From Alphaproteobacteria bacterium (GTDB lineage: Bacteria > Pseudomonadota > Alphaproteobacteria > UBA2966), in contig JABILA010000092.1 in NCBI GenBank assembly GCA_018654745.1, positions 1,729-65,728 on the forward strand: 64,000 nucleotides of DNA. Direction: 5' to 3'. Below, in pieces: positions 47,461 through 64,000 of the stretch; the stretch's first letter is position 1; each line of letters opens with the position of its first letter. The notes under the pieces are model-generated. The model was not told the origin of the DNA and ran no database searches. It worked only from the letters and a program-made list of their open reading frames with translations. The position numbers were made by a program, and so were the translations under genes.

Positions 47461-49188
47461 ATGGCCGACAAGATGGCAAAAGACTGGCTGAAAGATATCA
47501 GAAAGCCGCTCACGCCGATGTATCGCGAAATCGCTGTGATTTCGCTGTTCATCAATGCGCTTGCGCTTGCTGTGCCGGTATTTGTCTTGCAGATTTACGA
47601 TCGGGTCATCAATTCAGGTAATATCAGCACCCTTCAAGGCCTCTTGATCGGCGTTGGCTTTGTTTTCGCTTTTGACTACATCCTGCGCCAGTCCCGCTCC
47701 CGCCTTATGCAGCGCGCGGCGCTGAATATTGATGTGACCCTTGGCCGGGACCTGTTCAACAAGATCATGGCCTTGCCACTGTCTATTCTTGAGGCCCGGA
47801 CCTCTGCTTATTGGCATGCCCTTTTCAAGGATGGTGATACGGTCCGCAATACCTTGTCGGGTCCCAGCGCATTATTGATCGTTGACCTGCCATTTGCGGT
47901 GATGTTTATCGCCGTCATTTATCTAATCGCATCGCCCATTATCTGGGTGTTATTGCTTATCCTGCCAACATTTGTATTGCTGGCGTGGCGGTCGGCATCG
48001 TCTGTCAGCGCGGCCGCCGGCGAAGAACGCAAGGCCGGGTTCAGTCGCGATACGTTGCTTTCAGAAATTGTTGCTGGTCGTAACACAGTGAAAGCGCTGT
48101 CGCTGGAAGAGGACCTGAAGCCCCTTTGGGAAGATCGCCAGGCAGACAGCATCAAACGCTCAATCATGCGCGGCAACAGGTCGGACAAATATTCAAATCT
48201 GGGCGCAGGGCTGGCAGCAGCTGCTACTGTCGCCATGACCTCTGCCGGTGCATTTGCCATTATGGCAGGCGATATGTCCGTTGGTTCGCTGATTGCCGCC
48301 AACATGCTGAGTAACAAGGTTATTGGACCCTTTAACCAATTGGTCGGGTCCTGGCGTGCCTATGCCGGGTTCAAACAGGCCGTTGAACGCCTGACAGACG
48401 CCTTCGCCATGCCGCAGGAGCGCACAGAGATAAGCATTGCTCACGAGCGCCCTCGTGGTCGCATCAATCTTGAACACGTGCATTTCAAGTATGCGGAGGA
48501 CAGTCCATCCATCATTAATGGCGTCCGCCTGCAAGTTGACCCGGGTGGTGTTATCGCTGTTGTCGGCACAAACGGTTCCGGGAAAACGACACTGATCAAG
48601 ATGCTTCAGGGTCTTTACCGACCGACGCAAGGACGTGTCTTGCTGGATGGTGCTGATATCAACCAGTTTACGCGTCAGGAAATGGCGCAATGGATTGGCT
48701 ATGTCCCCCAGGAGACATTTTTGTTTACGGGTACAGTCCGCGACAACCTCGTCAAGGGCCGCCCCGAAGCGACTGATGATGAACTGGTAGAAGCCGCAAA
48801 AAAGTCCGGCCTGCATGATCTTGTTATTGATTTCCCGGACGGATATGCCACAGATATTGGCGAAGCTGGTGCCAGGCTGTCTGGTGGAATGCGCCAGAGA
48901 TTATCAATTGCACGTGCCCTGCTGGGTGATCCACCAGTGCTGTTACTGGATGAGCCTTCATCAAACCTGGATCGTGAAGGCGAAATGGAGTTGATGGAAA
49001 CGCTGAACGGCTTGGCAGAAAATCACACGATTATGGTTATCAGTCATGCCCCTGGCGTACTCTCACAGTGTCGGCAGGTCCTGGTCATGCAAAAGGGTCG
49101 TATTGTCCGCAGCGGCCGTCCATTGGATGTTCTGCCGCACCTTTTGGGTACCAACAGCGCACCACCAATCTATCAACGCCAAGCGTAA
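47461..49188 (+). CDS. Type I secretion ABC transporter (permease/ATPase, no N-terminal C39-like domain)
   Basis: INALALAVPVFVLQIYDRV, DLPF, Walker A GTNGSGKT, YVPQE, LSGGMRQR, LLLDEPSSNLD. Confidence 0.92.
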   Translation: MADKMAKDWLKDIRKPLTPMYREIAVISLFINALALAVPVFVLQIYDRVINSGNISTLQGLLIGVGFVFAFDYILRQSRSRLMQRAALNIDVTLGRDLFNKIMALPLSILEARTSAYWHALFKDGDTVRNTLSGPSALLIVDLPFAVMFIAVIYLIASPIIWVLLLILPTFVLLAWRSASSVSAAAGEERKAGFSRDTLLSEIVAGRNTVKALSLEEDLKPLWEDRQADSIKRSIMRGNRSDKYSNLGAGLAAAATVAMTSAGAFAIMAGDMSVGSLIAANMLSNKVIGPFNQLVGSWRAYAGFKQAVERLTDAFAMPQERTEISIAHERPRGRINLEHVHFKYAEDSPSIINGVRLQVDPGGVIAVVGTNGSGKTTLIKMLQGLYRPTQGRVLLDGADINQFTRQEMAQWIGYVPQETFLFTGTVRDNLVKGRPEATDDELVEAAKKSGLHDLVIDFPDGYATDIGEAGARLSGGMRQRLSIARALLGDPPVLLLDEPSSNLDREGEMELMETLNGLAENHTIMVISHAPGVLSQCRQVLVMQKGRIVRSGRPLDVLPHLLGTNSAPPIYQRQA

Positions 49189-49301: not shown

Positions 49302-50615
49302 ATGACCGACATTCCAGCCGGTTCACAAAACCCACTCGACGACCTGGTTCGGGAAAACCCGATCAAGGTCAGTCACAAACTCGTCTGGGCTGTGATGATC
49401 TTGCTGGCCTCCTCCGTTGCCTGGTCCTATTTTATTACATTGCCGGAGTATGCAGTCGCAATTGGGTCAATCGTCCCGCAAAGCCAGATCAAGATTGTGC
49501 AGCACCTGGAAGGTGGCATCGTTCAGGAGATATTTGTTGTTGACGGTGATTCCGTACGCAAAGGCGACCCCTTAATTCAACTTAAACTGGGAAGTTCCGG
49601 CTTGAACCGGGAAGACCTCCAGGTTCGCCTCGACGGTTTCATATTAACCCGCGCTCGTTTGACAGCTGAATCCAAAGGACGTGACATGATCATGCCCAAG
49701 GAAGAATCAGAACGTCACCCTGAACTGGCATCTTCAGAACTGAACCAGCTTGATTCCAGACGTAGCGAGCTTGACAGTACCATGACCGTGCAAAAGCGCC
49801 AGGTTGAGCAAGCAAAACTTGCCATCAAGGCGCTTACAACACAGAAATCAACATTGGAAAAAGACCTGGGGGTCTCAAAGAAAAAACTGGCTACATCTGC
49901 CAGTTTGCTTGCGATCCGCCTGGTGACCAAGACGTCCCATCAGGAACTGGAAAGCGCTGTGATCCAATTGCAGGGCCAGGTGGATTCCATCGGCGTGGAA
50001 ATTCCCAAAGCTCGCTCTGCCCTGCAGGAATCAAAGGATCGAGTTACCGAATTAACACTCAAATTCCGGCGTGAAGCAGCCGGTCAAATGAGTGAATTGC
50101 AGCAAAAAATTGCCAATGTCCGGCAATTGATTTCGCAAGCCAGTGAACAACGTTTGCGGACAGAAATTGTCAGCCCGATTGATGGCGTCATCAAAAATCT
50201 GGCTTTCAATACTGTTGGTGGTGTGGTCAAAGCCGGTGAGCCGATTATGCAAGTCGTGCCAACCGAAGCGACACTGGTAATCGAAGTTCACCTGGCGCCC
50301 GAAGACAGGGGCTATGTCAAGGTCGGTCAGAAGGCATTGGTAAAAGTAACAAGTTACGACTTCATCAGATACGGTGGACTTGACGGCCATGTAACTCAAA
50401 TTTCGCCAGACAGTGATCTTGATGAACAGGGCTCCCCCTATTTCCTCGTCAAAGTGGCGACCGACAGATCCTATCTGGGCACCAAAGAAGGTGACCTTCC
50501 GATTACTCCCGGCATGCAGGCGAGCGTTGACATCAAGACCGGCGACAAATCCGTCATGGAATATTTGATCCGCCCGGTATTAAAGATCCGCTACGAAGCC
50601 TTCCACGAACGCTGA
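49302..50615 (+). CDS. HlyD-family type I secretion membrane fusion protein
   Basis: N-terminal TM, VQHLEGGIV, coiled coil, IVSPIDG, TVGGVV..GE.IMQVVP, YDFIRYG, PGMQASVDI.TG. Confidence 0.94.
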   Translation: MTDIPAGSQNPLDDLVRENPIKVSHKLVWAVMILLASSVAWSYFITLPEYAVAIGSIVPQSQIKIVQHLEGGIVQEIFVVDGDSVRKGDPLIQLKLGSSGLNREDLQVRLDGFILTRARLTAESKGRDMIMPKEESERHPELASSELNQLDSRRSELDSTMTVQKRQVEQAKLAIKALTTQKSTLEKDLGVSKKKLATSASLLAIRLVTKTSHQELESAVIQLQGQVDSIGVEIPKARSALQESKDRVTELTLKFRREAAGQMSELQQKIANVRQLISQASEQRLRTEIVSPIDGVIKNLAFNTVGGVVKAGEPIMQVVPTEATLVIEVHLAPEDRGYVKVGQKALVKVTSYDFIRYGGLDGHVTQISPDSDLDEQGSPYFLVKVATDRSYLGTKEGDLPITPGMQASVDIKTGDKSVMEYLIRPVLKIRYEAFHER

Positions 50616-51315: not shown

Positions 51316-53688
51316 CTATTTCGACGTTGCGACGAAGACGCCGTCCCAGTCGGCAGCCGGGGGTGTGGCTTCGTAATCGCTGATACGTTCATCATACATG
51401 TCGTAGAGCACGTCCAGTGGCTTTTCGAGGAAGTCGTCCAGTTCGCGGCACTCGACGACCAGGGTGCGAGCCTCGGTCCATTGCTGGCCACGATAGGCTT
51501 CGAGCATCGCGGCATTCTTTGTCGCAAGGGCTTTGAACGCTGGCGTTTCAGCCATGTCCGGGCGACCCTGCAAACAGTAGATGTGTACGCCTTCTGTTTT
51601 GCCTTTGACCGCAATGAAATCCATTTCCAGCATCGCGTAACCGGGTGCACCCTTATATGTCTCATTACCGATGACGATACCGACGCCGTAGTTCTTTGAC
51701 TGGCTCTCCAGGCGCGCACCCAGGTTGATCGTATCGCCCAGCACTGAATAATCGAACCGCTGGCTGGAACCCATGTTGCCGACGCAGGCCTCTCCGGAAT
51801 TCAGGCCGATGCCGATGATGATCGGCAGGAAAAACTCGCCCGCCGCATCGCGTTCAGCCTTGATATCGGCATTCAGACCTTCCAGGGCCGAGAACATGGC
51901 CAGGGCCGAATCGCATGCATGTGTGACATGATCTGCATCATCCAAAGGCGCATTCCAGAATGCCATGATGCAGTCGCCCATGTATTTGTCGATGGTGCCC
52001 TGGCGAGCCAGAATCATATCCGTCATCGGCGTCAGGAAGCGGTTGATAAGATTGGTAAGCCCTTGTGGATCTGTCTTGAACTGTTCCGAGATGGCCGTAA
52101 AACCACGGATGTCAGCGAACAGCACCGTCATATCCCTCATCTCACCACCCAACGTTAATCGCTCAGGTTCGTCGGCGAGTTGCTCGACCAGGGCTGGCGA
52201 CAAGTACTGCGCAAAAGCACCACGGACCTGTTTCCGTTCGGCAGCAGACTTGGCGTAACTGGAGTAGGTTAGAAACGTATAAAGAATAAAGGTCGATGCC
52301 GCCGGATAGGTCGCATCAATGAGGTTCAAATTGGCTTTTTCTCCCCAGGTAAACAGCCCGAAAACATTGCCGGAATATTCCCACCAGGAATAACCAACCA
52401 TAGCTGTAATCAAACCAAATACGAGAACCGCAGTGAATGCCGCACCCAGATTAGGCACCAGCCAAATCATCAGCAATCCACAAAACAGGGCAACAACAAG
52501 CTCATTCCCCAAAGAATTGACCGGTCGCTTGAGATAGCTGTGTGCGAGAATCGTCTCGAGAAGATTGGCGTGCACCTCTACACCCGGCAGGGCATCATCA
52601 ATAGGGCTGGTTCGAATATCTTTCAAACCCTCTGCACTGGTGCCGAACAAGATTGCTCGGCCACGAACACGCTCTTTGTCAAAAGTACCATTAAAAACAT
52701 CTACAGCAGGAATATAGAGGCCGGGGTCATAAGGTCGAAAATGCACGGGAACTCGCCCCAAACCGTCAGTGGGTATTACAAAGTTCTTGGGCTTGCTTCG
52801 TAATTTGATCTTGGCCAGACCAACCAATCCTGATTTTGGATGCGCTGCCTCCGCGATGTATCCTTTCTGTCCATAGGCAAGGCGCAACATCTCCAATGTA
52901 AGCGATGGGTACAATTTCTTTCCGACTTGCAAAACCATGGATACACGTCGAACAATGCCATCACCTTCCGGATTAATAGTCACCATGCCGTGACCTCTGG
53001 CGGCTTCAGACAAGATTTTCGTGTTGCCCGTCAACCCATTGAAATTTTCCAGCAACTCCTTCGGATCACCATTTAGTTCTGCGTAACGTGTAGGTTTTGG
53101 TAATTCTGCCCGTCCCGCAATAACTTCATGAATAGCGGCTTGTCCCAGCACTGTATTTGTCTGGCGCAAAACGTTCGCAAATATTTCGTCGTTATTTGGC
53201 ATTTTTGCCAATGCCGCCGCGACATTTTTCGGCATATGAGGCATTGATTGGGCATACAGATTTGGCGACAAACGGTCTGGTTCAGTAAAGAATACGTCAA
53301 ACCCGATAACAGCAGCACCGGCATTCGCCAGGTTAACGACGATCTGGGCAATAATATTTCTCGGCCAGGGCCACTGGCCCAGTTCTGTCAGTGATTTTTC
53401 GTCAAGATCGACAATTGAAACGGGATCCCCTGTTTTTACTCGCGGTTTTAGTCGCTGATAAAGATCAAATGTCTTCACCCTCAGCGGCTCAATTGGGGGT
53501 AGGTCCAGCGTCCTCACTACGCCCAATGAAAGCAACAAAGCTATTGCAATCAAGCGACTTGGGCTGAACCAGGATTTGAAACGCTGACGCCAGGTTCGGC
53601 GTTTGCGGTTGTGCCATTTTTCCAGCAGACGCGCCCCAAAACCGGGACCATCATCGGTTTCACTACTTCGCACTGTCGTATCAGCCAT
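51316..53688 (-). CDS. CHASE2-domain class III adenylate cyclase
   Basis: TM, CHASE2 (VDLDE.SL..LGQWPWPR, GFDVFF.EPDR, PGVEVHA), three TMs, catalytic LFADIRGFT, IDKYMGD, FDYSVLGD..NL.ARLE (K/D pair typical of ATP specificity). Likely start ATG 53688. Confidence 0.92.
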   Translation of the reverse strand: MADTTVRSSETDDGPGFGARLLEKWHNRKRRTWRQRFKSWFSPSRLIAIALLLSLGVVRTLDLPPIEPLRVKTFDLYQRLKPRVKTGDPVSIVDLDEKSLTELGQWPWPRNIIAQIVVNLANAGAAVIGFDVFFTEPDRLSPNLYAQSMPHMPKNVAAALAKMPNNDEIFANVLRQTNTVLGQAAIHEVIAGRAELPKPTRYAELNGDPKELLENFNGLTGNTKILSEAARGHGMVTINPEGDGIVRRVSMVLQVGKKLYPSLTLEMLRLAYGQKGYIAEAAHPKSGLVGLAKIKLRSKPKNFVIPTDGLGRVPVHFRPYDPGLYIPAVDVFNGTFDKERVRGRAILFGTSAEGLKDIRTSPIDDALPGVEVHANLLETILAHSYLKRPVNSLGNELVVALFCGLLMIWLVPNLGAAFTAVLVFGLITAMVGYSWWEYSGNVFGLFTWGEKANLNLIDATYPAASTFILYTFLTYSSYAKSAAERKQVRGAFAQYLSPALVEQLADEPERLTLGGEMRDMTVLFADIRGFTAISEQFKTDPQGLTNLINRFLTPMTDMILARQGTIDKYMGDCIMAFWNAPLDDADHVTHACDSALAMFSALEGLNADIKAERDAAGEFFLPIIIGIGLNSGEACVGNMGSSQRFDYSVLGDTINLGARLESQSKNYGVGIVIGNETYKGAPGYAMLEMDFIAVKGKTEGVHIYCLQGRPDMAETPAFKALATKNAAMLEAYRGQQWTEARTLVVECRELDDFLEKPLDVLYDMYDERISDYEATPPAADWDGVFVATSK

Positions 53689-53923
53689 ATTTCCCCCGGC
53701 CAGACGAGCCAATCTTTGGCAAACAGCATAGCACAGTGCGCTGAAATTCCACAAAAATTCCTGAATCCGCCAAAAAACATCTAAAGACAAGGCTGTCAAA
53801 GACGATGTATAGTCCAGGAGCGGAACTAAGGGTTATTTGTATGGTGAATAAAAACCAGGCTCCGCGCAGATCTGCGCCATTTGGCCTTCCTGTAAAAGGG
53901 GAGGACTGGTGGGGTATGCCTTG

Positions 53924-53943
53924 TTGCCATTGTCGAATGGCAA
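53924..53943. promoter_or_regulatory. Perfect 8-4-8 inverted repeat between the cyclase and TolC genes
   Basis: TTGCCATT-GTCG-AATGGCAA, extendable by GCC/GGC with a bulge. Confidence 0.35.
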
Positions 53944-54034
53944 GGCAGCTGAACGACGTGTGTGCAAGTATTCCAGGTCTCTCGAGGCCAATCAATTTGA
54001 TACGGGAACCAGTTTGATTGTAAGGCGCTACAGG

Positions 54035-56071
54035 GTGGAACAGTTAAAGGCGGCAGCTTTGAGAGTTGCAGCGCGTTTTCACACGCCTGTACACCTTGTT
54101 GCCGCATTTGCATTTGTTGTTGGTACCTTCAGTTACGTTCCGCAGGCCACGGCTGCAAATTTGAAAGAGGAATTGTTACTGTTATTGCAACAACACCCAC
54201 AGCTGAAGGCAGGCAAAGATAATGTCGCGGCAGCAAGCGAAGGTGTTAACTTTGCAAGTTCTCTGTTCCTGCCAACAGTCAGCTTGAACGGTGATAGCGG
54301 TTACAAGATAATTGACAATCCGACGAGCCGCGCTGCCGGTAAAAATTTCGGCCGGGGTTTTGAAAAACTGACCCTGACAGTCACACAGAATATTTTCGAT
54401 GGTAGCCGCAAGAACCATGACAAGAACACGGCTGAACTGAACCAGGAAGCTGTTGCAGGTTCTTTCGAAGAAACCCGGCAATCGCTTTTGTTGCAAGCTG
54501 CGAACATCTATGTCGATGTCTTGCGCCAAATAGCGCTCACACGCCTTGCCCGGAAAAGTGAATCGGCCATCGCCTTTCAGCTGGACCTTGAAGACGAACG
54601 CGTCAAACGTGGTGGCGGTACAGCGGTTGATGTCCTGTTATCGAAAACACGGCTTCAGCGTTCGAAAGAGCAACGGATTGTATTTGAGGGCAATTTGCGA
54701 GATGCGGTTACCAGGTACACACAACTGTTCGGACATCCGCCCGATCTGAAAACTCTTGAAACACCAAAGCTTGATTATGTGCTTGTCCCAACTGATATCG
54801 ATGCCGCCGTTTCGGCTGCACTTGCGGCGAACCCACTGATCGCCAACAGCAATCGCCAGATTGACATTGCGCGCATGCGACAGAGGTCGGCACAATCTGA
54901 CTATTTCCCTCGTGTCGATGTTGTTGGGTCTGCCAACTATGAAGACGACCGTGAAGGCACTGTAGGAAACCGTCGGGATTATTCGGTTACATTGCAGGCA
55001 ACCTGGAATCTGTTTTCCGGTTTTTCAACTCGTTCCTCGGTTGCTGAAGCGGCCCATAGCTATTCTGCTACTATTAACAATCACTTGTTCGTTAACCGGC
55101 GCATCGAAGAAGAAGTGCGACTGGCCTGGCAAAGTATGCTGACTGCCTGCGATCGCAGATTATTGCTGGTTAATGCCGTGCTGATCTCTGCCGAGGTTCA
55201 TGCCTCCAGGGTGCGCCTGCAGGAAGCTGGCCAGGAAACAACAATCAACGTGCTGGACGCCGAAGGAGAAGTCTTCAACGCTGAGATCAACGAAGTAGCA
55301 GCCGTTTATGACGAGGTGTTGGCCATTTACCGGCTGGCATCAGCACAGGGCTTGAACCTTGTCGATATTCTGGACCTGGAATATTCGCCTGAGGTCAATG
55401 CCAAAGCCAAAGAACATTACGAAGACCGTTGCATAGGCAGACTTCAAACCGTCGCTCATCGAACAACAGAAGATGCTGCTCAAAAAGGCGCCGCGAATCC
55501 ATTCGGAACACCTGCCAAAGGCGAAGACGGCGACGAAGCTGCAAACCCCTTTGCTGCACCGGCGGAAGAAGATGGCGAAGACGATGAAGACGAGAATAGT
55601 GATGAAAAGGCGGCAAATCCATTTGCCGCACCTTCAAATGAAGATGAAAGTGAAGAAGCAGAAGATGGCGCATCCGCTAATCCATTTGCGGCAAAAAGCC
55701 AGGATGATGTCGAAACAGAAGATGATGGCGAAGCTTCCACTTCCAATCCATTTGCTGAAAAGAGCGGGGACGATGAAAATGGTACGGATGACGATGACGG
55801 CCTGTCTTTGAAAAAGAAGACCGATGTACTGAAGAAAAGTTCAATCGAAGATGAAATTGAAGAAGATGATGACGACAGCATAAGTCGCAACAATCCTGTG
55901 GATGACGAAGAGAGTGAAAACGAAGCGGTAAGGGAACTTGAGACCGAAGAAGATGACGAACCTGTTACGGACGACAAGGTTTCGACACTGGTCCTGCCCC
56001 AATCACAAAAAACGGCAACAGAAAAGACTGATACCGAATGGGACGACGACTTAAAGAAAACGACGCAATAA
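54035..56071 (+). CDS. TolC-family outer membrane channel with long acidic C-terminal extension
   Basis: Two OEP repeats (LFLPTVSLNG...QNIFDG; YFPRVDV...WNLFSG; TTINVLDAE). Start uncertain (GTG 54035 gives a plausible signal peptide ending QATA; the ORF opens at 53909). Confidence 0.88.
   Translation: MEQLKAAALRVAARFHTPVHLVAAFAFVVGTFSYVPQATAANLKEELLLLLQQHPQLKAGKDNVAAASEGVNFASSLFLPTVSLNGDSGYKIIDNPTSRAAGKNFGRGFEKLTLTVTQNIFDGSRKNHDKNTAELNQEAVAGSFEETRQSLLLQAANIYVDVLRQIALTRLARKSESAIAFQLDLEDERVKRGGGTAVDVLLSKTRLQRSKEQRIVFEGNLRDAVTRYTQLFGHPPDLKTLETPKLDYVLVPTDIDAAVSAALAANPLIANSNRQIDIARMRQRSAQSDYFPRVDVVGSANYEDDREGTVGNRRDYSVTLQATWNLFSGFSTRSSVAEAAHSYSATINNHLFVNRRIEEEVRLAWQSMLTACDRRLLLVNAVLISAEVHASRVRLQEAGQETTINVLDAEGEVFNAEINEVAAVYDEVLAIYRLASAQGLNLVDILDLEYSPEVNAKAKEHYEDRCIGRLQTVAHRTTEDAAQKGAANPFGTPAKGEDGDEAANPFAAPAEEDGEDDEDENSDEKAANPFAAPSNEDESEEAEDGASANPFAAKSQDDVETEDDGEASTSNPFAEKSGDDENGTDDDDGLSLKKKTDVLKKSSIEDEIEEDDDDSISRNNPVDDEESENEAVRELETEEDDEPVTDDKVSTLVLPQSQKTATEKTDTEWDDDLKKTTQ
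55487..55760 (+). repeat. Five xxNPF motifs separated by Asp/Glu-rich spacers in the TolC tail
   Basis: AANPFG, AANPFAA, AANPFAA, SANPFAA, TSNPFAE, spaced about 15-25 aa apart by D/E runs. Confidence 0.9.
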
Positions 56072-56112
56072 ACCTTTGTGCTGCCCGACCATTCAGGTGG
56101 CGGACGGTACTG

Positions 56113-56913
56113 ATGACTGTTGGCACGTTTGTACTGATCCTGTCAGGCGGTCTAACTGCATCTGATATCGCACTTGCCGCTTCCGCGAAAGTTGGGGAAA
56201 CTTTCAAGGATTGTAAAAAGTGCCCGAAGATGGTCGTCATTCCTGGTGGAAAATTCTTGATGGGGGACGACAAGGGAAAAAAGAACCAGCGCCCGGCACA
56301 TGAAGTTACTATCAAGGGCCCCCTGGCGATCAGCATCTACGAAGTCACATGGATTGAATGGCAAGCCTGCAAAAAAGCAGGAGCTTGTAAACGCGATCTG
56401 GACAGCCACAAATGGGGCAAAGGCAAGCGGCCCGTAATTAATATGTCATGGAACGAGACGCAGGATTACACCAAATGGTTGGCAAAAAAAACCGGCCGCC
56501 CTTATCGTCTGCTGAGTGAGGCTGAATGGGAATATGCGGCACGAGCTGGATCAACAACAGCCTATTGGTGGGGTGACAAGCTCAAGAAAAAATATGCCAA
56601 TTGCCGTAAATGTGGCACGAAATGGAGCGGCAAAAAGTCTGCACCTGTAGGATCGTTCAAACCGAACCAATGGGGTATTTACGATATGCACGCAAATATC
56701 TGGGAATGGACCCTGGACTGTCACAACAAAACCCACGCCTTTGCACCAAAGAATCAGACACCACGTACAGACGGGAACTGCGATCGTCGCACAGTACGCG
56801 GCGGGTCCTGGTACTATTTCCCACAAATCGCCAAATCAGTTTCAAGAGACAGTCATCCACAGCATTTGTGGAGCTATAACATCGGCATTCGTCTGGGACT
56901 GCCGCTTTATTGA
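56113..56913 (+). CDS. Exported formylglycine-generating-enzyme (SUMF1/FGE-sulfatase) domain protein, probably non-catalytic
   Basis: Signal peptide; F.DC..CP.MVVIPGG.F.MG, YEVT..EW, RPVINMSW, RLLSEAEWEYAARAG, VGSF.PN.WG.YDM.AN.WEW, RGGSW. Likely start ATG 56113. Confidence 0.87.
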   Translation: MTVGTFVLILSGGLTASDIALAASAKVGETFKDCKKCPKMVVIPGGKFLMGDDKGKKNQRPAHEVTIKGPLAISIYEVTWIEWQACKKAGACKRDLDSHKWGKGKRPVINMSWNETQDYTKWLAKKTGRPYRLLSEAEWEYAARAGSTTAYWWGDKLKKKYANCRKCGTKWSGKKSAPVGSFKPNQWGIYDMHANIWEWTLDCHNKTHAFAPKNQTPRTDGNCDRRTVRGGSWYYFPQIAKSVSRDSHPQHLWSYNIGIRLGLPLY

Positions 56914-56944: not shown

Positions 56945-59134
56945 TCAGGCCTCGGGGGGCACCGAAAAATGTGCCCAGCGCTCACGACCGCCCCGATTTT
57001 CAATGTAATTAACCAGGGCTGCCACAGGCCGGCGGCTGAATTCCTTGCCCCCAAGGCCAACGAGAATGCCACAAGCCTTTTCGAATTCCATGCCGGCACG
57101 GTAAGGCCGGGCACTGGCCATACCGACAAATGCATTGGCAACGGCAACAATACAGGCGCTGATCTCCAGGTCTTCTCCCAACATGCCCTTGGGTCCGGAA
57201 CCATCCCATTTTTCCTGCACTTGACGGATGGTATCCACAACGGGTCCATCAAAATCAACTTCCTGCAACAGATCAGCACTGACCTGGACACTGTCACGCA
57301 CAATTTGCATTTCTTCGTCGGTCAAGGCACCTTCCTTGGAGAGGATTTCAACTGGTACCAGGGTCTTGCCAAGATTCATCAGCTTTCCGGAAATACCGGA
57401 CGTTTGAACGGCCTGATCTTCCAGTTCCATCTCCTTGGCAATACATTCAGCCACATCAGAAACACGCAAGGCATGATCTGCCGTAAAAGGGTCACGCCGC
57501 CCGACGACGGTCAGCAATGTAGACACCAATTGATTCATTATCAGGCTACGTCGTTCGCGTTGCTCAACCAGTTCGCTGATGTCATCCAGAATCATCAGAC
57601 AGCCAGGCGGGAAGTCTCGATCTGGTCGCAATGGTATGTGATAGGACCGGATAATATGGCGACCGCGTTCGTCCTCAAATGTCTTCTCGTTCGATACACG
57701 TCCGTCACCCGCCAGGATTTCTTCACGATTGCGAATGATCTCGGCGTTATAATCGAGAAAATATTTACCCTTTATCGGACCGATCACACTGGACAGGGAT
57801 TTCCCCAGCATTTCTTCATGGGTGATCCCAGTGCCAACCGACGCCTGGTAATTGGCGAAAGTGATTACACCGGCATCTGTTACCGCCATGATTGATGTTG
57901 GCTGACCATCCGTTACAACTTTCAGGAATTTTGACAAGTTGCCAAATCGTTCAGCAGCAATCCTGAACCCTTCTGCAGCTTCTGCAGCCCGGATACTTGT
58001 GCCGTGTCGCCAGACCGCAATCAAGGTGACAGCCATGCCGCCAATCAGCATCAGGAATACGACCAGCATTGTCGTCAGGCGTGTATCCGTATCTGCGAGG
58101 GCTTCTGCCGTTGTGACTTTGCGAACCAATGTCCATGGAACAGCGGTTAATGGTCGCCCCGTGACCAGGACTTCAGCCCCGTCATAGTCGCGCTTGATAC
58201 CAAAGCCACCCGCTGTATCCAGAACAAATGCGGATGCCAGATCAGGTGTATTCAGGGCAAGACGACGCTTAAGAGGCCTCGTTCCATCCTTGAGAGGTGA
58301 GACATATTCAACATTCGGCTTAGCTGACCTGACCAAGTAGGTTTCCGCGGTTTGCTCAATTTCACCCGGCTGTTCGAGATTTTCAAAAAGATCATCGCCA
58401 ACGATCCGAACGCCGATAATCAAGCCAATAAAGTCACTGCCACCGCTGCCGCCCTGCACCGCATATACCGGTGTAATAAAGGCCATGGTCGGCAACCCGG
58501 TCAGGCCAACGTAGATATCAACAAATCCAGGATCGCCCTCGGACATGGCAGCTACAGCTGCCCTGAGCCTTCCGGTAATGGGTGGCATGGCGGGTGTTGC
58601 AACCAGCGTCTCGCCATTTTCATCGGTCAATGCCAATCCGGCAACACCGGCCTTTTCGACATTGGCACTGACTTCACCAGCAGACGTGGGAGCTGAAAAT
58701 CCGGCGCGATCTGCTGATGCGACCAGCAAATTACGCAAATAACCTGCCTGGGCCGGCTCGTCCGTTATCTGGCTGCGATCCCCCTCGCTCAGCATCAATT
58801 CAGTCATATAAAGCTGCAGCGACGCATTTTCGGACATCTCACGCAGTACCGAATATTGCGCATCTACCCACTCGGTAACCGCAGCAGCCCGGCTATCTGC
58901 AACGATCCCGAGGCGTACTTGCCAAGCCTGGTGATCACGAGCACGCTCGCTTTCGATAAACCAGAAAACGCCCGCAACGCCGCCAATGGCCAAAGCAACA
59001 AGAACAATTGCTGTGATCAGCACAACCTTGTTAACGCCCCGTTTGACGGTTTCTTTCTCGACGCCACCACCACCGGAAGCTTGTTCAGGTTCGCTTTTTT
59101 CTGTCGCTGTCTCTGTGTCGTTTTCGTCGGTCAT
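56945..59134 (-). CDS. Inner-membrane protein: periplasmic Cache-like sensor, PAS-like domain and degenerate HD-GYP domain
   Basis: TM1 (VVLITAIVLVALAIGGVAGVFWFI), about 300-aa periplasmic region, TM2, PAS-like segment (ITFANYQA), HD-GYP fold (RDPFTADH..RV, ILSKEG.LT.EE, WDGSGP.G..GE, RPYR) with HD changed to MN. Likely start ATG 59134. Confidence 0.85.
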   Translation of the reverse strand: MTDENDTETATEKSEPEQASGGGGVEKETVKRGVNKVVLITAIVLVALAIGGVAGVFWFIESERARDHQAWQVRLGIVADSRAAAVTEWVDAQYSVLREMSENASLQLYMTELMLSEGDRSQITDEPAQAGYLRNLLVASADRAGFSAPTSAGEVSANVEKAGVAGLALTDENGETLVATPAMPPITGRLRAAVAAMSEGDPGFVDIYVGLTGLPTMAFITPVYAVQGGSGGSDFIGLIIGVRIVGDDLFENLEQPGEIEQTAETYLVRSAKPNVEYVSPLKDGTRPLKRRLALNTPDLASAFVLDTAGGFGIKRDYDGAEVLVTGRPLTAVPWTLVRKVTTAEALADTDTRLTTMLVVFLMLIGGMAVTLIAVWRHGTSIRAAEAAEGFRIAAERFGNLSKFLKVVTDGQPTSIMAVTDAGVITFANYQASVGTGITHEEMLGKSLSSVIGPIKGKYFLDYNAEIIRNREEILAGDGRVSNEKTFEDERGRHIIRSYHIPLRPDRDFPPGCLMILDDISELVEQRERRSLIMNQLVSTLLTVVGRRDPFTADHALRVSDVAECIAKEMELEDQAVQTSGISGKLMNLGKTLVPVEILSKEGALTDEEMQIVRDSVQVSADLLQEVDFDGPVVDTIRQVQEKWDGSGPKGMLGEDLEISACIVAVANAFVGMASARPYRAGMEFEKACGILVGLGGKEFSRRPVAALVNYIENRGGRERWAHFSVPPEA

Positions 59135-59333: not shown

Positions 59334-60050
59334 ATGTCTACCGAAGTTCAAAATTACCCGATTTCAATCCGTCGAATTTCCCGACGAAGATTGTTGTGCA
59401 CTGCCAGCATACTCATAGGTTCTGCCGGGGTAGGTGCGATAGGATTAGTATTGGCAGATGACGCGGAAGCTGCCATCAAGGGCAAACCCGGCATTTTCAA
59501 TACAATTGAAATAAAGAAAAAGGGGTTAAAGCCGTTTCCTAAGTGGACTGGCGCCATGAAACGGTTCCTCAACGAAAAGCAGAAGAACGACGGCAAATGC
59601 AAGCCAACGGCCCGTAAGAAGTGTTATTACCAAACCTGGGCCAATATGATTGATGACCTGAGGGACAAAGGCCCCTGGAAACAAATCCTTGGGGTCAACA
59701 AATTTATGAACCGGGCACCATATGTCGTCGACAAGATGAATTGGGGCGTTAAGGATTATTGGTCAACACCGGGTCAGTTCTTTGCAAAATACGGTGACTG
59801 CGAAGATTACGCCATTGTCAAATTTCTCTCATTGCGGGCGTTGGGTATTCCCTCCAAGTCCATGAGAATTGTTGTTGTGCAGGATTTGAACCTAAAAATT
59901 GCCCACGCTGTTTTGGCGATTTATGTGAAGGGCAAGGTTCTGGTTCTGGATAACCAGATTAAGAAAGTGGTGGAATCAAAAACCATCCGCCACTACAGGC
60001 CCATATTTTCGCTCAACGAAGAGGGTTGGTGGCTTCACCGTAAAGCCTGA
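59334..60050 (+). CDS. LapG-like transglutaminase-like cysteine protease (BTLCP family) with Tat-type signal
   Basis: VNKFMN, D..NWG..DYW.TP.QF, catalytic GDCEDYAI.K (Cys), AHAVL (His), VLDN (Asp); N-terminal SRRRLL...AEA. Confidence 0.92.
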   Translation: MSTEVQNYPISIRRISRRRLLCTASILIGSAGVGAIGLVLADDAEAAIKGKPGIFNTIEIKKKGLKPFPKWTGAMKRFLNEKQKNDGKCKPTARKKCYYQTWANMIDDLRDKGPWKQILGVNKFMNRAPYVVDKMNWGVKDYWSTPGQFFAKYGDCEDYAIVKFLSLRALGIPSKSMRIVVVQDLNLKIAHAVLAIYVKGKVLVLDNQIKKVVESKTIRHYRPIFSLNEEGWWLHRKA

Positions 60051-60189: not shown

Positions 60190-63100
60190 TTATTCGATCT
60201 TGATTTCATTGGCATCGATATCGCCGTCTTCAATATTGGCGACAAGGGAATAGCCCTGACCAGATCCACTTTGGTCGTAATACAATTCATCCGTAGATGT
60301 ATCGAAGACAAAGGCTGCATCGCCCGAAGCCGTCTCACCGGCTGAGCTATCGATTTCTTCAAATTCAGAAGCATCCAGCATGCCGGTGCTCGCATCGAAG
60401 CTGACATTAAATGCATCACTGTCGAACGACAGTTCATCGTCACCGGCTTTGTAATCTGTGATGGTGTCACCAAGATCATCCAGTGATTCAAAGCGGAAAG
60501 TATCGTCACCCTTCCCACCCTTCAGTGTGTCTGCACCACTACCACCGACGATGTAATCATTGCCATCGCCGCCATTGATGTTGTCATCGCCAGCGCCGCC
60601 ATAAATGAAGTCATCTCCACTATCGCCTCTGATCGTGTCATTGCCAGCGCCGCCATACAATTGATCTGCGCCCGACCCGCCTTTGAGGGTATCAGCACCA
60701 TCTCCGCCAAAGAGGATATCGGCACCACTTTCACCTTTCAGCGTGTCGTCGCCATCACCACCGGTCAGAGTATTGTCATTTCCATCACCCTTGATGTAAT
60801 CGTCAAATGCCGAACCTGTGACATTTTCGATGTCATCCAGATCGTCATAGAAGGATGAACCATTTCGATCTTCTCCGTAGTCGTCGTTCAACTTCACTTT
60901 GACTGCAACACCACTAGCAGAATAATCGACGGTATCGATTCCACTTCCGCCATCGATTTCGTTATACCCGGTACCACCAAACAGTGTGTCATCACCGGCA
61001 CCACCAGACAGATCATCATCACCAGCACCGCCATACAGCATGTCATTGCCATCACCACCAGACAGGGTATCGTCTCCAGCACCCGACCAGATGATATCGT
61101 CACCATCTTCGCCATTTATTGTAACGTCTCCGTAGGCGTAGATATTGCTGGTCAAATCGACCAGGTCGTTTCCAGCGCCAGCGTTGATGGTCTCTACATT
61201 AACAATTTGCGCGCCCTCGCCATCCGGGAAGACGCTGTAGCGGTCATCCAGGAAGATTGCGTCATCGCCGACAGACAGACTGAGAACGTCAGTTCCGGAG
61301 CCGCCATCAAATACATCTTCAGACTTGTTATAGCCATCCAGATTAACGACTTCCTCGGTTTCAACGTTGTACGCCGCTGCACTGCTGGTCCAGGTACCAT
61401 CTGCAGAGTAGTTCAGTTCATCGTCATCATCTCCACCCGACAAGTAATCCGAGCCTGTGCCGCCGGACAGGGTGTCGTCACCATCACCGCCGTAGATCAT
61501 GTCGTTGCCACCAAGGGCATCGATGCTATCGTCACCGGATGTTCCGGTCAGATTGTCATCACCTTCTGTGCCCGAAATTGGTTGAACACCATTGTCTGTA
61601 ACATCAACAACGAAGGAGGTTGTTGACGTAGCCTCGGTACCGTCCTCGGAGGTGGTTGCGGTAACGGTCAGGGTGAAGTCAGCCATATCGATGTCGCCCT
61701 CGCCGCCTTCTCCGCCTTCTCCGCCTTCTCCACCTTCTCCGCCTTCACCACCTTCTTCGCCGGAACTTGCATCCAGAGTGATTTGCAGGTTTTCCAACTG
61801 ATCCTGGGTCAGGGTCCATGTCGTGGTCCCATCACCTGCATCCGAAGATGTACCGGCACTCAGGGTTGCGCCATCCGGCACACCGCTGATTTCAACAGTC
61901 ATGCTTTCTGATTCATCCATATCAACGAAAGCAGAAGTAATATCCAGGTCAAATGATGTCCCTTGATCACCCGATACATCAACAGCCGTTACAGTCGCGG
62001 CGTCAGCAACACCTGAGACATCGACAAACAAGCTATCATTTGTTGTGCCGTCGTCGTTTGTGGCTGTAACAACCAGATTAAAATCATCATCCGAGTGTTC
62101 CGGAGGCGTAATCGTCAGGTTGGACAAGTCCCAACCAGTGATATCAACCGAGCCGCCACCTTCAGGGGCAGTGTAGCTATCCGTACCAGATGTCAGGGTC
62201 GCCCCTGCAGGAATGCCGCCGATGGCAAGAGCCACGCCTACACCGGCTGCAGATACATTCAGGGCTATGGCGCTATCTTCCGCGCCTTCAGAATCACCCA
62301 ATGTCAGAACTGGTGGCTCAGCTTCCGGATCGATCGATACGACAATATTGCCAAAGGTCGAAGCCGTATCACTTCCGTCGGTTTCGGTTGAAGTCGCCGT
62401 TACGGTCAACGGAATATCAGCTTCCGAATCCACTGGTGGTGTGATCTGCAGGGTGGTCAAATCCCAACCTGTCACATCTACAGTGCCACCACCTGCCGGA
62501 GCAGTATAGGTATCCGTGCCAGATGTCAGCGTCGCACCTTCCGGGATGCCGCTAATACTCAAGCTCAGGCTTTCCGAACCGTCGGTATCGGTCAGACCCG
62601 CTGTGATATCCGGCAGGTCAATCGCCGTATTTTCGTCACCGCTGGCTGTTGTATCCATGGTCAGGGTAGGTGCATCAGCATCTGCTGCAACAGATACCGT
62701 CATGCTGCCTGTCGTTGAGGCGGCATCAGATCCATCCGTTGATGTTGCTGTCACACCCAAATTGAAGTCTGCATCAGAGTCAGCTGACGGTGTGATCTGC
62801 AGGCCGGTCAAATCCCAACCCGTCACATCAACTGAGCCACCACCTTCAGGAGCTGTATAGGTATCCGTACCTGAGGTCAGTGTGGCACCAGCAGGAATTC
62901 CATCGATCGTTACCGACAAAGTTTCCGAGGCATCCGTCAATGTCGCTGAGATATCAGGCAATGCAATGGCTGTATCTTCTGCGCCAGCTGCCGGATCACC
63001 GGTAATATCTAATGTCGGAGCATCCGCATAGTCTGCAACATCAACAATTACACTCGCTTCAACCGTGTTTGTATCCCCATCATTTTCTGTTGCAGTCGCC

Positions 63101-64000
63101 GAAACCGAGATTTCGAAATCATTACTACCTTGTGGCACCGTCACGCTCAAGTCGGTCAAATCGCCACTGGTCAATGTCCAGGTGCCATCCTCGTTGTCAG
63201 TGCCAGCAGAAAGCACAGCGCCCTCAGGCAGACCGCTAACAACCAGAGACAAGCTTTCAGAGCCATCTGTATCCGTCAGGTTGGAAGTTATATCCAGCGG
63301 ATATTCGACAGAGCCAGCATCTCCTTCAGAGGTCTCAAATTCGATTGAGTTAATCAGGAAATCATCACCAGCGCCTGGGGCTGAAAAGACGATCTGATCA
63401 AAGGCGCTACCATCATCCGCGGTGATAGAGACCGCTGGATCAATACCATCGCTACCGCCAACGACAGTTCCTTCGCCGACCTTTACACCGTCTTGATAAA
63501 GTTCATAAGTTGCATCTTCACCGGAATGTTTCCAGGCAAAAGCCACATCCACTGATGTGACTTCCTGATCAAACTCAATGAGCATTTCTTCAGAAACATC
63601 GTGCTCTGAATTGTAACCCAATTCTGAATCAGCACCTGAGGCCGAACCACTAACACCAAATCCTTGTGGGTAACCTGACTGGATGCTGATACTGTCACTT
63701 GAAGCGTCAGTCAGGTCACCATTCGCATCAACTGTCCGGCCAGAAACAGTAAACCCGTTTTCGCTATTCAGAACATTGCCTGAATCGATGGTGACATCCA
63801 CCGTTTCACCTGTACCGGCAATTACTTCGCCCTCACCGACTGAAACGGTCAAGGTTGGTGCATCCGCAACACCCGCAACCTCAACTGTCATTTGATCCGT
63901 AGTGGTTGTGGTCGAGTTACCGTCCGTCGAAGTGACAGATACAGACAGGTCGAAGTCTGCATCAGAGTCCTCGGCAGGGGTGACTGTCAGGCCGGTCAGA
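60190..64000 (-). CDS. Large RTX adhesin / T1SS substrate; 3' part only (5' end beyond the window)
   Basis: Reading frame stays open from 63999 (LTGLTVTPAEDSDADFDLSV...), so ATG 63891 is not the true start. About 100-120-aa Ig/cadherin-like repeats (DAPTL...GATL...L.ITP), many GGxGxDxLx nonapeptides, C-terminal LYYD secretion-type end; very acidic. Confidence 0.92.
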   Translation of the reverse strand, partial: LTGLTVTPAEDSDADFDLSVSVTSTDGNSTTTTTDQMTVEVAGVADAPTLTVSVGEGEVIAGTGETVDVTIDSGNVLNSENGFTVSGRTVDANGDLTDASSDSISIQSGYPQGFGVSGSASGADSELGYNSEHDVSEEMLIEFDQEVTSVDVAFAWKHSGEDATYELYQDGVKVGEGTVVGGSDGIDPAVSITADDGSAFDQIVFSAPGAGDDFLINSIEFETSEGDAGSVEYPLDITSNLTDTDGSESLSLVVSGLPEGAVLSAGTDNEDGTWTLTSGDLTDLSVTVPQGSNDFEISVSATATENDGDTNTVEASVIVDVADYADAPTLDITGDPAAGAEDTAIALPDISATLTDASETLSVTIDGIPAGATLTSGTDTYTAPEGGGSVDVTGWDLTGLQITPSADSDADFNLGVTATSTDGSDAASTTGSMTVSVAADADAPTLTMDTTASGDENTAIDLPDITAGLTDTDGSESLSLSISGIPEGATLTSGTDTYTAPAGGGTVDVTGWDLTTLQITPPVDSEADIPLTVTATSTETDGSDTASTFGNIVVSIDPEAEPPVLTLGDSEGAEDSAIALNVSAAGVGVALAIGGIPAGATLTSGTDSYTAPEGGGSVDITGWDLSNLTITPPEHSDDDFNLVVTATNDDGTTNDSLFVDVSGVADAATVTAVDVSGDQGTSFDLDITSAFVDMDESESMTVEISGVPDGATLSAGTSSDAGDGTTTWTLTQDQLENLQITLDASSGEEGGEGGEGGEGGEGGEGGEGDIDMADFTLTVTATTSEDGTEATSTTSFVVDVTDNGVQPISGTEGDDNLTGTSGDDSIDALGGNDMIYGGDGDDTLSGGTGSDYLSGGDDDDELNYSADGTWTSSAAAYNVETEEVVNLDGYNKSEDVFDGGSGTDVLSLSVGDDAIFLDDRYSVFPDGEGAQIVNVETINAGAGNDLVDLTSNIYAYGDVTINGEDGDDIIWSGAGDDTLSGGDGNDMLYGGAGDDDLSGGAGDDTLFGGTGYNEIDGGSGIDTVDYSASGVAVKVKLNDDYGEDRNGSSFYDDLDDIENVTGSAFDDYIKGDGNDNTLTGGDGDDTLKGESGADILFGGDGADTLKGGSGADQLYGGAGNDTIRGDSGDDFIYGGAGDDNINGGDGNDYIVGGSGADTLKGGKGDDTFRFESLDDLGDTITDYKAGDDELSFDSDAFNVSFDASTGMLDASEFEEIDSSAGETASGDAAFVFDTSTDELYYDQSGSGQGYSLVANIEDGDIDANEIKIE
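60500..61580 (-). repeat. RTX nonapeptide (Ca2+-binding beta-roll) blocks
   Basis: GGNDMIYGGDGDDTLSGGTGSDYLSGG; GAGDDTLSGGDGNDMLYGGAGDDDLSGGAGDDTLFGG; GGDGDDTLKGESGADILFGGDGADTLKGG and more. Boundaries approximate. Confidence 0.9.
61696..61761 (-). repeat. 9-bp tandem repeat encoding (EGG)n
   Basis: Plus strand (CCGCCTTCT)-type units, encoding GEEGGEGGEGGEGGEGGEGGEGD. Confidence 0.9.
62020..63035 (-). repeat. Three related Ig-like repeats of the adhesin
   Basis: Three copies of IP.GATLTSGTD.YTAP.GGG.VD.TGWDL..L.ITP, with synonymous DNA divergence. Boundaries approximate. Confidence 0.88.

Follow-up and report, generated by a model that had tools for sequence, protein, structure and literature searches.

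What does an HD-GYP protein do once nearly all of its metal ligands are gone? The question is raised by a gene in a 64,000-nt stretch of DNA, here called the window (NCBI GenBank assembly GCA_018654745.1, contig JABILA010000092.1, positions 1,729 to 65,728 of the forward strand), from a member of the Alphaproteobacteria (GTDB lineage UBA2966). The gene encodes a membrane protein of 739 residues, referred to below as the receptor, whose C-terminal HD-GYP domain was proposed in an earlier note on this DNA to act as a receptor and not as a phosphodiesterase, in analogy to the degenerate EAL domain of LapD. The comparisons reported here suggest, with a probability of roughly 0.8, that it is an inside-out receptor of the DvhD type, in which a catalytically dead HD-GYP domain would sense cyclic di-GMP (c-di-GMP) and control a LapG-like protease and an RTX adhesin. 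The observations behind this reading are motif losses, conservation, homology, fold and synteny, from which we infer ligand binding, the relay across the membrane and the direction of control.

The HD-GYP domain was aligned to those of PmGH, V-cGAP3, PA4781 and DvhD. Of the metal-ligand set of PmGH (H189, H221, D222, H250, H276, H277 and D305), just the first His survives in the receptor, as H564 in DHALRV; the replacements at the other motifs are listed in Table 1, and the Asp that follows (PmGH D308) is lost as well, being V680 here. HDxGK keeps its Lys and HHE its Glu, and the W653-D-G-S-G loop and RPYR are also retained. Each of the substitutions listed in the earlier note (LMNLGK, VRDSV, VQE, GP and AVAN) is thus present when the domain is set against solved HD-GYP proteins, as are the features it described as kept (the His of DHALRV, WDGSG and RPYR), and the PAS-like domain that it placed ahead of the HD-GYP domain is recognized by Pfam (PAS_4, residues 421–533) and, as a PAS S-box, by NCBIfam (TIGR00229). 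Its view that the fold and the nucleotide-contact loop are preserved holds in full for the fold but only in part for the loop, where the phosphate-bonding Tyr of GYP is deleted. The same genome encodes three other proteins matching HD_5, the HD-GYP family model in Pfam that the receptor also matches, and in these HDxGK, HHE and GYP are all intact; the motif losses are therefore specific to the receptor gene and not a product of chance or misalignment. With the HD, H250, HH and D305/D308 metal ligands gone, catalysis is not expected.

More than 630 full-length relatives were recovered by database search, and 109 of them, 46–93% identical to the window protein, were aligned. A pattern scan placed relatives in 432 species genomes, and the locus counts given below refer to the best 80 of these. 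At the HD position, the 109 homologues have MN (96), LN (5), IN (5) or other residues (3), but never HD. The HHE position reads [MVLIF][GQ]E, with no case of HH, the second His surviving in six and the Glu invariant. The position of PmGH H250 is Ser in 74 and Ala in 23, and His in none; that of D305 is Asn in 103; and the GYP Tyr is a gap in 78 and a Tyr in just seven. Orthologues with intact HD or HHE motifs, which the earlier note associated with recent decay, were encountered neither among the 109 proteins nor among the receptor copies of the 80 species loci (0/109 and 0/80). Among the best-conserved blocks of the protein is VANAFVGMASAR, with a mean top-residue frequency of 0.88; the 12-residue block SGISGKLMNLGK reaches 0.82, and the degenerate block KLMNLGK also ranks with the most conserved, in a domain whose overall mean (0.68) is at the level of the rest of the protein. 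Since the substitutions are conserved in every homologue examined, the motif losses are judged to be ancient, a conserved degeneration rather than recent decay.

These data bear directly on the alternative that the protein is still a phosphodiesterase with a reduced or unconventional metal site, or else a recently decayed enzyme or pseudogene. H564 and E651 do remain and the fold is intact, but at least five of the seven His and Asp ligand positions of PmGH are taken by residues that are not ligands (M, N, S, V, Q/G and N), and DvhD, with similar losses, shows no hydrolysis with any metal. Recent decay is ruled out by the conservation just described and by the fact that altered blocks are among the best conserved, and the reading frame is open over its full length. 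Taken together, this alternative is extremely improbable.

The best-matching characterized protein is DvhD (DVU1020) of Desulfovibrio vulgaris Hildenborough (PDB 9rbz, 9rc0 and 9rc2; Karbelkar et al. PNAS 2024; Font et al. Nat Commun 2026). DvhD sits in the membrane and carries a dCache domain in the periplasm, then PAS and HD-GYP domains (PMC10990149, PMC13090378). In DvhD, HD has become SQ and HH has become MN; the protein is metal-free, does not hydrolyse c-di-GMP with any metal, and binds it with a dissociation constant (Kd) of ~0.1–0.3 μM in a canonical site and a dimer-bridging site (PMC13090378, PMC10990149). It takes the place of LapD: DvhG, a LapG-like protease, and two large adhesins are under its control (PMC10990149, PMC13090378). 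The receptor has the same order of parts: a cytoplasmic N-terminal tail, a first transmembrane helix (residues ~46–70), a dCache-like periplasmic domain, a second transmembrane helix (~360–388), a PAS domain, a stalk helix and the degenerate HD-GYP domain. Both proteins have lost the HD and HH ligands, carry the Asn of AVANAF, and retain the R-x-Y-R motif, the Met, the Leu and the bridging Pro. Identity between the two HD-GYP domains is ~34%, and the replacements differ in detail: HD is MN here and SQ in DvhD, HH is VQ here and MN in DvhD, and H588 of DvhD is Ser here.

Database comparisons lead to the same protein. The top PDB sequence match of the receptor is 9rbz/9rc0, named "HD domain/sensory box protein", which is DvhD (E 2.5e-26). 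A family profile matched the DvhD PAS and HD-GYP domains (9rc0) with E 3.6e-64, compared with 1.6e-36 for V-cGAP3 and 3e-25 for PmGH. An AlphaFold2 model of the receptor built on the 109-sequence alignment (mean predicted local distance difference test score, pLDDT, 85.6) was searched against the PDB with Foldseek, and for each of its three parts the best match was a DvhD structure (9rc0 with E 5.6e-16, 9rbz and 9rc2). The HD-GYP domain aligns to 9rbz with a TM-score of 0.84–0.88 and 33–35% identity, and the periplasmic domain, which has a weak Pfam match to dCache_1 over residues 88–249, aligns to that of DvhD (9rc2) with E 2.5e-8 and a TM-score of 0.74, ahead of other stand-alone dCache-domain structures. 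The first periplasmic helix is broken in the model (helices 46–111 and 114–125), as in DvhD, and two blocks lying on it, WQVRLGIVADSR and ENASLQLY, rank among the most conserved of the receptor in the family alignment; the model of the DvhD authors puts the protease interface on the corresponding helix (PMC13090378). In a small HD-GYP tree with five canonical enzymes, DvhD groups with the receptor family (support 100/98), and the Asp-to-Asn change in AVANAF is common to both lineages, in keeping with the dead domain having arisen only once. The match to DvhD in architecture, in the degenerate metal site and in the neighbouring genes discussed next speaks for the proposal of a receptor in place of a phosphodiesterase, with ligand binding by extrapolation, and the parallel once drawn to the degenerate EAL domain of LapD proved apt, in that DvhD has been shown to be such a receptor (PMC10990149, PMC13090378).

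Judged by its gene content, the locus is a Lap/Dvh-type adhesin module (Table 1), with genes for a BTLCP protease, the type I secretion system (T1SS) and a large RTX adhesin beside that of the receptor, as in the DvhD system. The protease is encoded by the only BTLCP gene of the genome. Its best matches are LapG structures, from Legionella and P. fluorescens (4fgo, E 2.3e-26; 4u65, E 3.6e-19), and its Ca/Cys motif GDCEDYA, His (AHAVL) and Asp (LVLDN) align to them as a Cys-His-Asp triad and Ca site; with the NCBIfam LapG model it scores 104.7 bits, under the cut-off. Its N-terminus resembles a twin-arginine signal (SRRRLL), so that it appears to carry an export signal, whereas DvhG has a membrane anchor and a long linker. 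In 60 of the 80 species loci a BTLCP gene is found in or beside the receptor locus, directly upstream and divergent in 59 and ~7 kb downstream in the remaining one (L080). Eight of the 20 loci without such a gene have less than 800 bp of upstream sequence. As the pairing is spread across the whole receptor tree it is considered ancestral, and its distribution indicates that it has been lost or relocated several times in the family. In a few clades (L063, L067, L071, L072, L074 and L079; also L012, L018, L025, L037 and L054) no BTLCP gene lies within 10 kb, despite enough flanking sequence.

The RTX adhesin gene runs past the end of the contig, at window position 64101. A probable N-terminal part was found on another contig of the assembly (C85), as a frame with a retention module of the LapA type at its start (NF033682, E 7e-10, under the model cut-off; FecR fold), followed by a long acidic spacer rich in Glu, Ala and Gly, a TAAG motif and then repeats. 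The motif (DDQIATAAGG) fits the LapG/DvhG cleavage consensus, [T/A/P]AAG, and the repeats share as much as 61% identity with their counterparts at the end of the window's contig; the two contigs plausibly hold a single adhesin gene split by the assembly. An adhesin with a retention module and a di-alanine site is part of the DvhD system. A third gene with similar repeats is located at C114:18175-19476.

Table 1. Positions of the receptor, its domains and altered motifs, and the neighbouring genes (window coordinates unless a contig is named).
Feature	Position	Strand	Basis or remark
Receptor gene, DvhD-like, 739 aa	56945..59164	-	Open reading frame and translation
Periplasmic dCache-like domain, residues ~71-356	58097..58954	-	AlphaFold2 model; 9rc2 fold match
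Cytoplasmic PAS domain, residues 416-538	57551..57919	-	Pfam PAS_4 (421-533) E 4e-5; TIGR00229 E 3.7e-7
Degenerate HD-GYP domain, residues 555-703	57056..57502	-	Pfam HD_5 E 1.6e-26; 9rbz E 2.5e-26, TM-score 0.84-0.88
M596-N597 in place of the HD dipeptide	57374..57379	-	ATTCAT, reverse complement ATGAAT = Met-Asn
S625 (VRDSV) in place of metal-ligand His, PmGH H250	57290..57292	-	Alignment; DvhD retains His here
V649-Q650-E651 in place of HHE	57212..57220	-	Alignment
G657-P658, GYP with Tyr deleted	57191..57196	-	Alignment
N677 (AVAN) in place of metal-ligand Asp, PmGH D305	57134..57136	-	Same Asn in DvhD (AVANAF)
R686-P-Y688-R689, retained (DvhD R650, Y652, R653)	57098..57109	-	Alignment
LapG/DvhG-like BTLCP cysteine protease, divergent from receptor gene	59334..60050	+	Peptidase_C93 E 9.5e-19
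Large RTX adhesin, C-terminal part, convergent	60190..64000	-	HemolysinCabind, 10 stretches, E 1.4e-51
Probable adhesin N-terminal part	contig C85:99459-105322	+	Open frame to contig end
Type I secretion ABC transporter, LapB analogue	47461..49188	+	ABC_membrane and ABC_tran
HlyD-type membrane-fusion protein, LapC analogue	49302..50615	+	HlyD_3 E 8e-19
TolC-like outer-membrane channel, LapE/DvhE analogue, with acidic tail	53909..56071	+	OEP E 8.9e-47
C-terminal tail of the TolC-like protein	55440-56071	+	~200 aa, strongly acidic, repeated NPF-containing motifs
CHASE2 membrane sensor fused to class III cyclase domain	51316-53799	-	CyaB 3r5g E 3e-29, adenylate cyclases best match
FGE-sulfatase (SUMF1-like) domain protein, apparent N-terminal signal/anchor	56038-56913	+	Pfam E 8e-51

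Two genes of the locus are additions with respect to DvhD, whose host is a sulfate reducer and not a Rhodospirillales-like alphaproteobacterium. One, flanked by the genes for the T1SS fusion protein and the TolC-like channel, encodes a CHASE2 cyclase, in which a Lys (IDKYMGD) and Ser (FDYSVLGD) pair is read as class IIIb adenylate-type. The same gene order is found in L001, L002, L003, L013, L015 and L016, with a cyclase also in L019 and L020; in the receptor tree, the cyclase-bearing loci make up the window's clade, apart from L019, which belongs to a neighbouring one. The other is the FGE-sulfatase gene, which is wedged between the TolC and receptor genes, a position it has only in the window's clade (L001–L003, L013, L015 and L016).

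Whether the pocket could still take a nucleotide was judged by mapping the contacts of the DvhD crystal onto the window protein, with family counts taken over the 109 homologues. Mutations at R650, Y652/R653, P567, M646 and K520 weaken the c-di-GMP response of DvhD (PMC13090378). Four of these positions are identical in the receptor: R650, a phosphate contact, is R686 (Arg in all 109); Y652/R653, a base clamp, is Y688/R689 (Tyr in 89 and Trp, His or Phe in 19; Arg in all 109); P567, in the bridging site, is P604 (Pro in 101); and M646, a base contact, is M682 (Met in 106). The fifth, K520 of the bridging site, is changed conservatively to R557 (Arg in 103). A further base clamp, L577, is also kept, as L614 (Leu in 108). 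Other contacts have been altered. The GYP Tyr (Y621), which makes a phosphate hydrogen bond, is deleted; K582, a phosphate contact, is M619 (family Arg in 63, Leu in 21, Met in 9); E668, which makes a guanine-specific hydrogen bond, is L704 (Asp, Glu or Gln in 98, Leu in 7); Y523, contacting a ribose hydroxyl, is F560 (Phe in 67, Tyr in 41); and R569, in the bridging site, is E606 (Glu or Asp in 99). On these counts the nucleotide pocket is clearly under selection across the family, while in the window's clade several polar and specificity contacts are absent, so affinity or specificity could differ.

Pocket conservation also bears on the idea that the HD-GYP domain binds no nucleotide at all and is a dimerization or scaffold module in an outside-in or PAS-driven sensor, responding to a dCache ligand or a PAS signal. 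Such a sensor would suit the dCache and PAS domains, which are classical sensor modules, and half of the polar residues with which DvhD contacts its nucleotide are indeed changed. However, the receptor has no output domain besides HD-GYP, and R686 and R689 are invariant, with M682 and L614 nearly so, across the 109 homologues. As it is difficult to account for such conservation if no ligand is bound, a ligand-free scaffold is very unlikely.

The altered contacts raise another alternative, with the same architecture and protease output, in which the preferred ligand would be 3'3'-cyclic GMP-AMP (3'3'-cGAMP), the linear dinucleotide pGpG, or a mononucleotide such as cyclic AMP (cAMP) from the cyclase of the locus. 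The receptor has Leu at the position of the Glu that gives DvhD its guanine specificity (E668) and Met at that of K582, and it is without the GYP Tyr; 3'3'-cGAMP also binds DvhD itself, with a Kd of ~0.5 μM (PMC13090378); and a CHASE2 cyclase of adenylate-cyclase-like type is embedded among the T1SS genes, in an arrangement confined to the window's clade. Against this, the Arg, Tyr/Arg, Met, Leu and Pro that bear most of the c-di-GMP response of DvhD are all retained, and the genome encodes 13 GGDEF proteins alongside three intact HD-GYP enzymes, the former implying that c-di-GMP signalling exists. Within the cyclase-linked clade, moreover, L013, L015 and L016 retain Glu at the E668 position and L003 has Gln there; the change in the pocket thus does not track the cyclase, and cAMP from the neighbouring cyclase is therefore rated low. 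We know of no HD-GYP domain that binds cAMP, which also counts against it. A different preferred ligand is on balance unlikely. A more specific version, that the dead pocket of this marine Rhodospirillales clade has been retuned to 3'3'-cGAMP, pGpG or even cAMP, is suggested by three losses from the pocket (the Glu that reads guanine, the Tyr of GYP and the Lys that binds phosphate) together with the gain of a CHASE2 cyclase in the locus. It is unlikely, but if it were true, adhesin release would be coupled to a second-messenger circuit other than c-di-GMP.

Elsewhere in the family, two subclades (L027, L029, L042, L044, L053 and L056, and L057, L059, L065 and L075) are without the Tyr clamp, with Gly, Asn or Ser at the position of DvhD Y652. 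M646 is mostly lost in the same loci too, usually to Leu (Lys in L044). A BTLCP gene adjoins the receptor gene in all of them except L056, whose upstream sequence is too short to judge. The receptors of these subclades may be ligand-blind or otherwise tuned.

The preferred reading, a DvhD-type receptor of c-di-GMP, would work as follows. The receptor would be a dimeric inner-membrane protein whose HD-GYP domain binds no catalytic metals and hydrolyses no nucleotide, with a c-di-GMP pocket retained in the form of the Arg-x-Tyr-Arg motif, the Met and Leu base clamps and the Pro at the dimer bridging site. If DvhD is a guide, binding of the nucleotide would make the stalk helices between PAS and HD-GYP splay and would reposition the stalk and PAS helices. 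This movement would be passed through the transmembrane helices to the dCache-like domain, which in turn would hold back the neighbouring LapG-like, Ca-dependent cysteine protease. At high c-di-GMP, the RTX adhesin exported by the T1SS would be anchored in the TolC-like channel via its N-terminal retention module; at low c-di-GMP the freed protease would cut at TAAG and the adhesin would be released.

Several points weigh against this reading. Four of the eight canonical-site contacts of the DvhD crystal are changed (Y621, K582, E668 and Y523), as is R569 of the bridging site, which is Glu here. The periplasmic domain is tied to DvhD by fold alone, at 17% identity: searched against the PDB as a single sequence it returned nothing relevant, and the full-length family profile misses the DvhD periplasmic domain. 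The HD-GYP tree has few outgroups and limited sampling. With the N-terminal part of the adhesin located on a different contig, the connection between it and the RTX gene of the window is indirect.

Other known systems are less close. LapD of Pseudomonas fluorescens, a GGDEF-EAL receptor of c-di-GMP, is similar in its use of a degenerate enzyme domain as a receptor, in inside-out control of a periplasmic LapG-type protease and in the release of a T1SS adhesin, but it has no homology to the window receptor; it is made up of a periplasmic LapD_MoxY_N domain, a HAMP domain and degenerate forms of GGDEF and EAL, and Pfam gives no match to any of these in the receptor. The genome as a whole gave no match to LapD_MoxY_N, but control genomes were silent too, so this says little. 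The catalytic HD-GYP phosphodiesterases (PmGH, 4mcw; PA4781, 4r8z; V-cGAP3, 5z7c; RpfG) share the fold, the first His, the HHE Glu, the HDxGK Lys, the DG-G loop and RPYR, whereas the receptor is without their HD, H250, HH and D305/D308 metal ligands. Bd1817 of Bdellovibrio, which retains the HD metal site, is also a variant HD-GYP protein without the GYP tyrosine, but it is a distant fold match to the receptor (PDB 3tm8, E 2e-6) and has no known link to a LapG-type protease.

An adhesin switch built on a dead HD-GYP domain has already been published (2024, 2026), and the window receptor adds a member to it, not a new mechanism. As far as their text goes, the DvhD papers discuss only the Desulfovibrionales (PMC10990149, PMC13090378), and neither main text, nor the 2026 supplements, mentions alphaproteobacterial DvhD homologues, a class-level distribution figure excepted; the size of the alphaproteobacterial branch may be new. 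If the assignment is right, sulfate reducers are not alone in using a dead HD-GYP domain, as in DvhD, to receive the second messenger in a Lap-like adhesin switch. The family would also provide a second, deeply diverged sequence set in which ligand-pocket residues that are essential can be told from those free to vary, and a basis for annotating such genes as receptors rather than as "HD domain phosphohydrolases". The best 80 loci are mostly from metagenome-assembled genomes, labelled as Rhodospirillales-type or plainly as Alphaproteobacteria or Proteobacteria, with a few labelled otherwise, and mostly from uncultured environmental and marine organisms. Within the window's own order, the receptor gene is present in 6 of 23 genomes.

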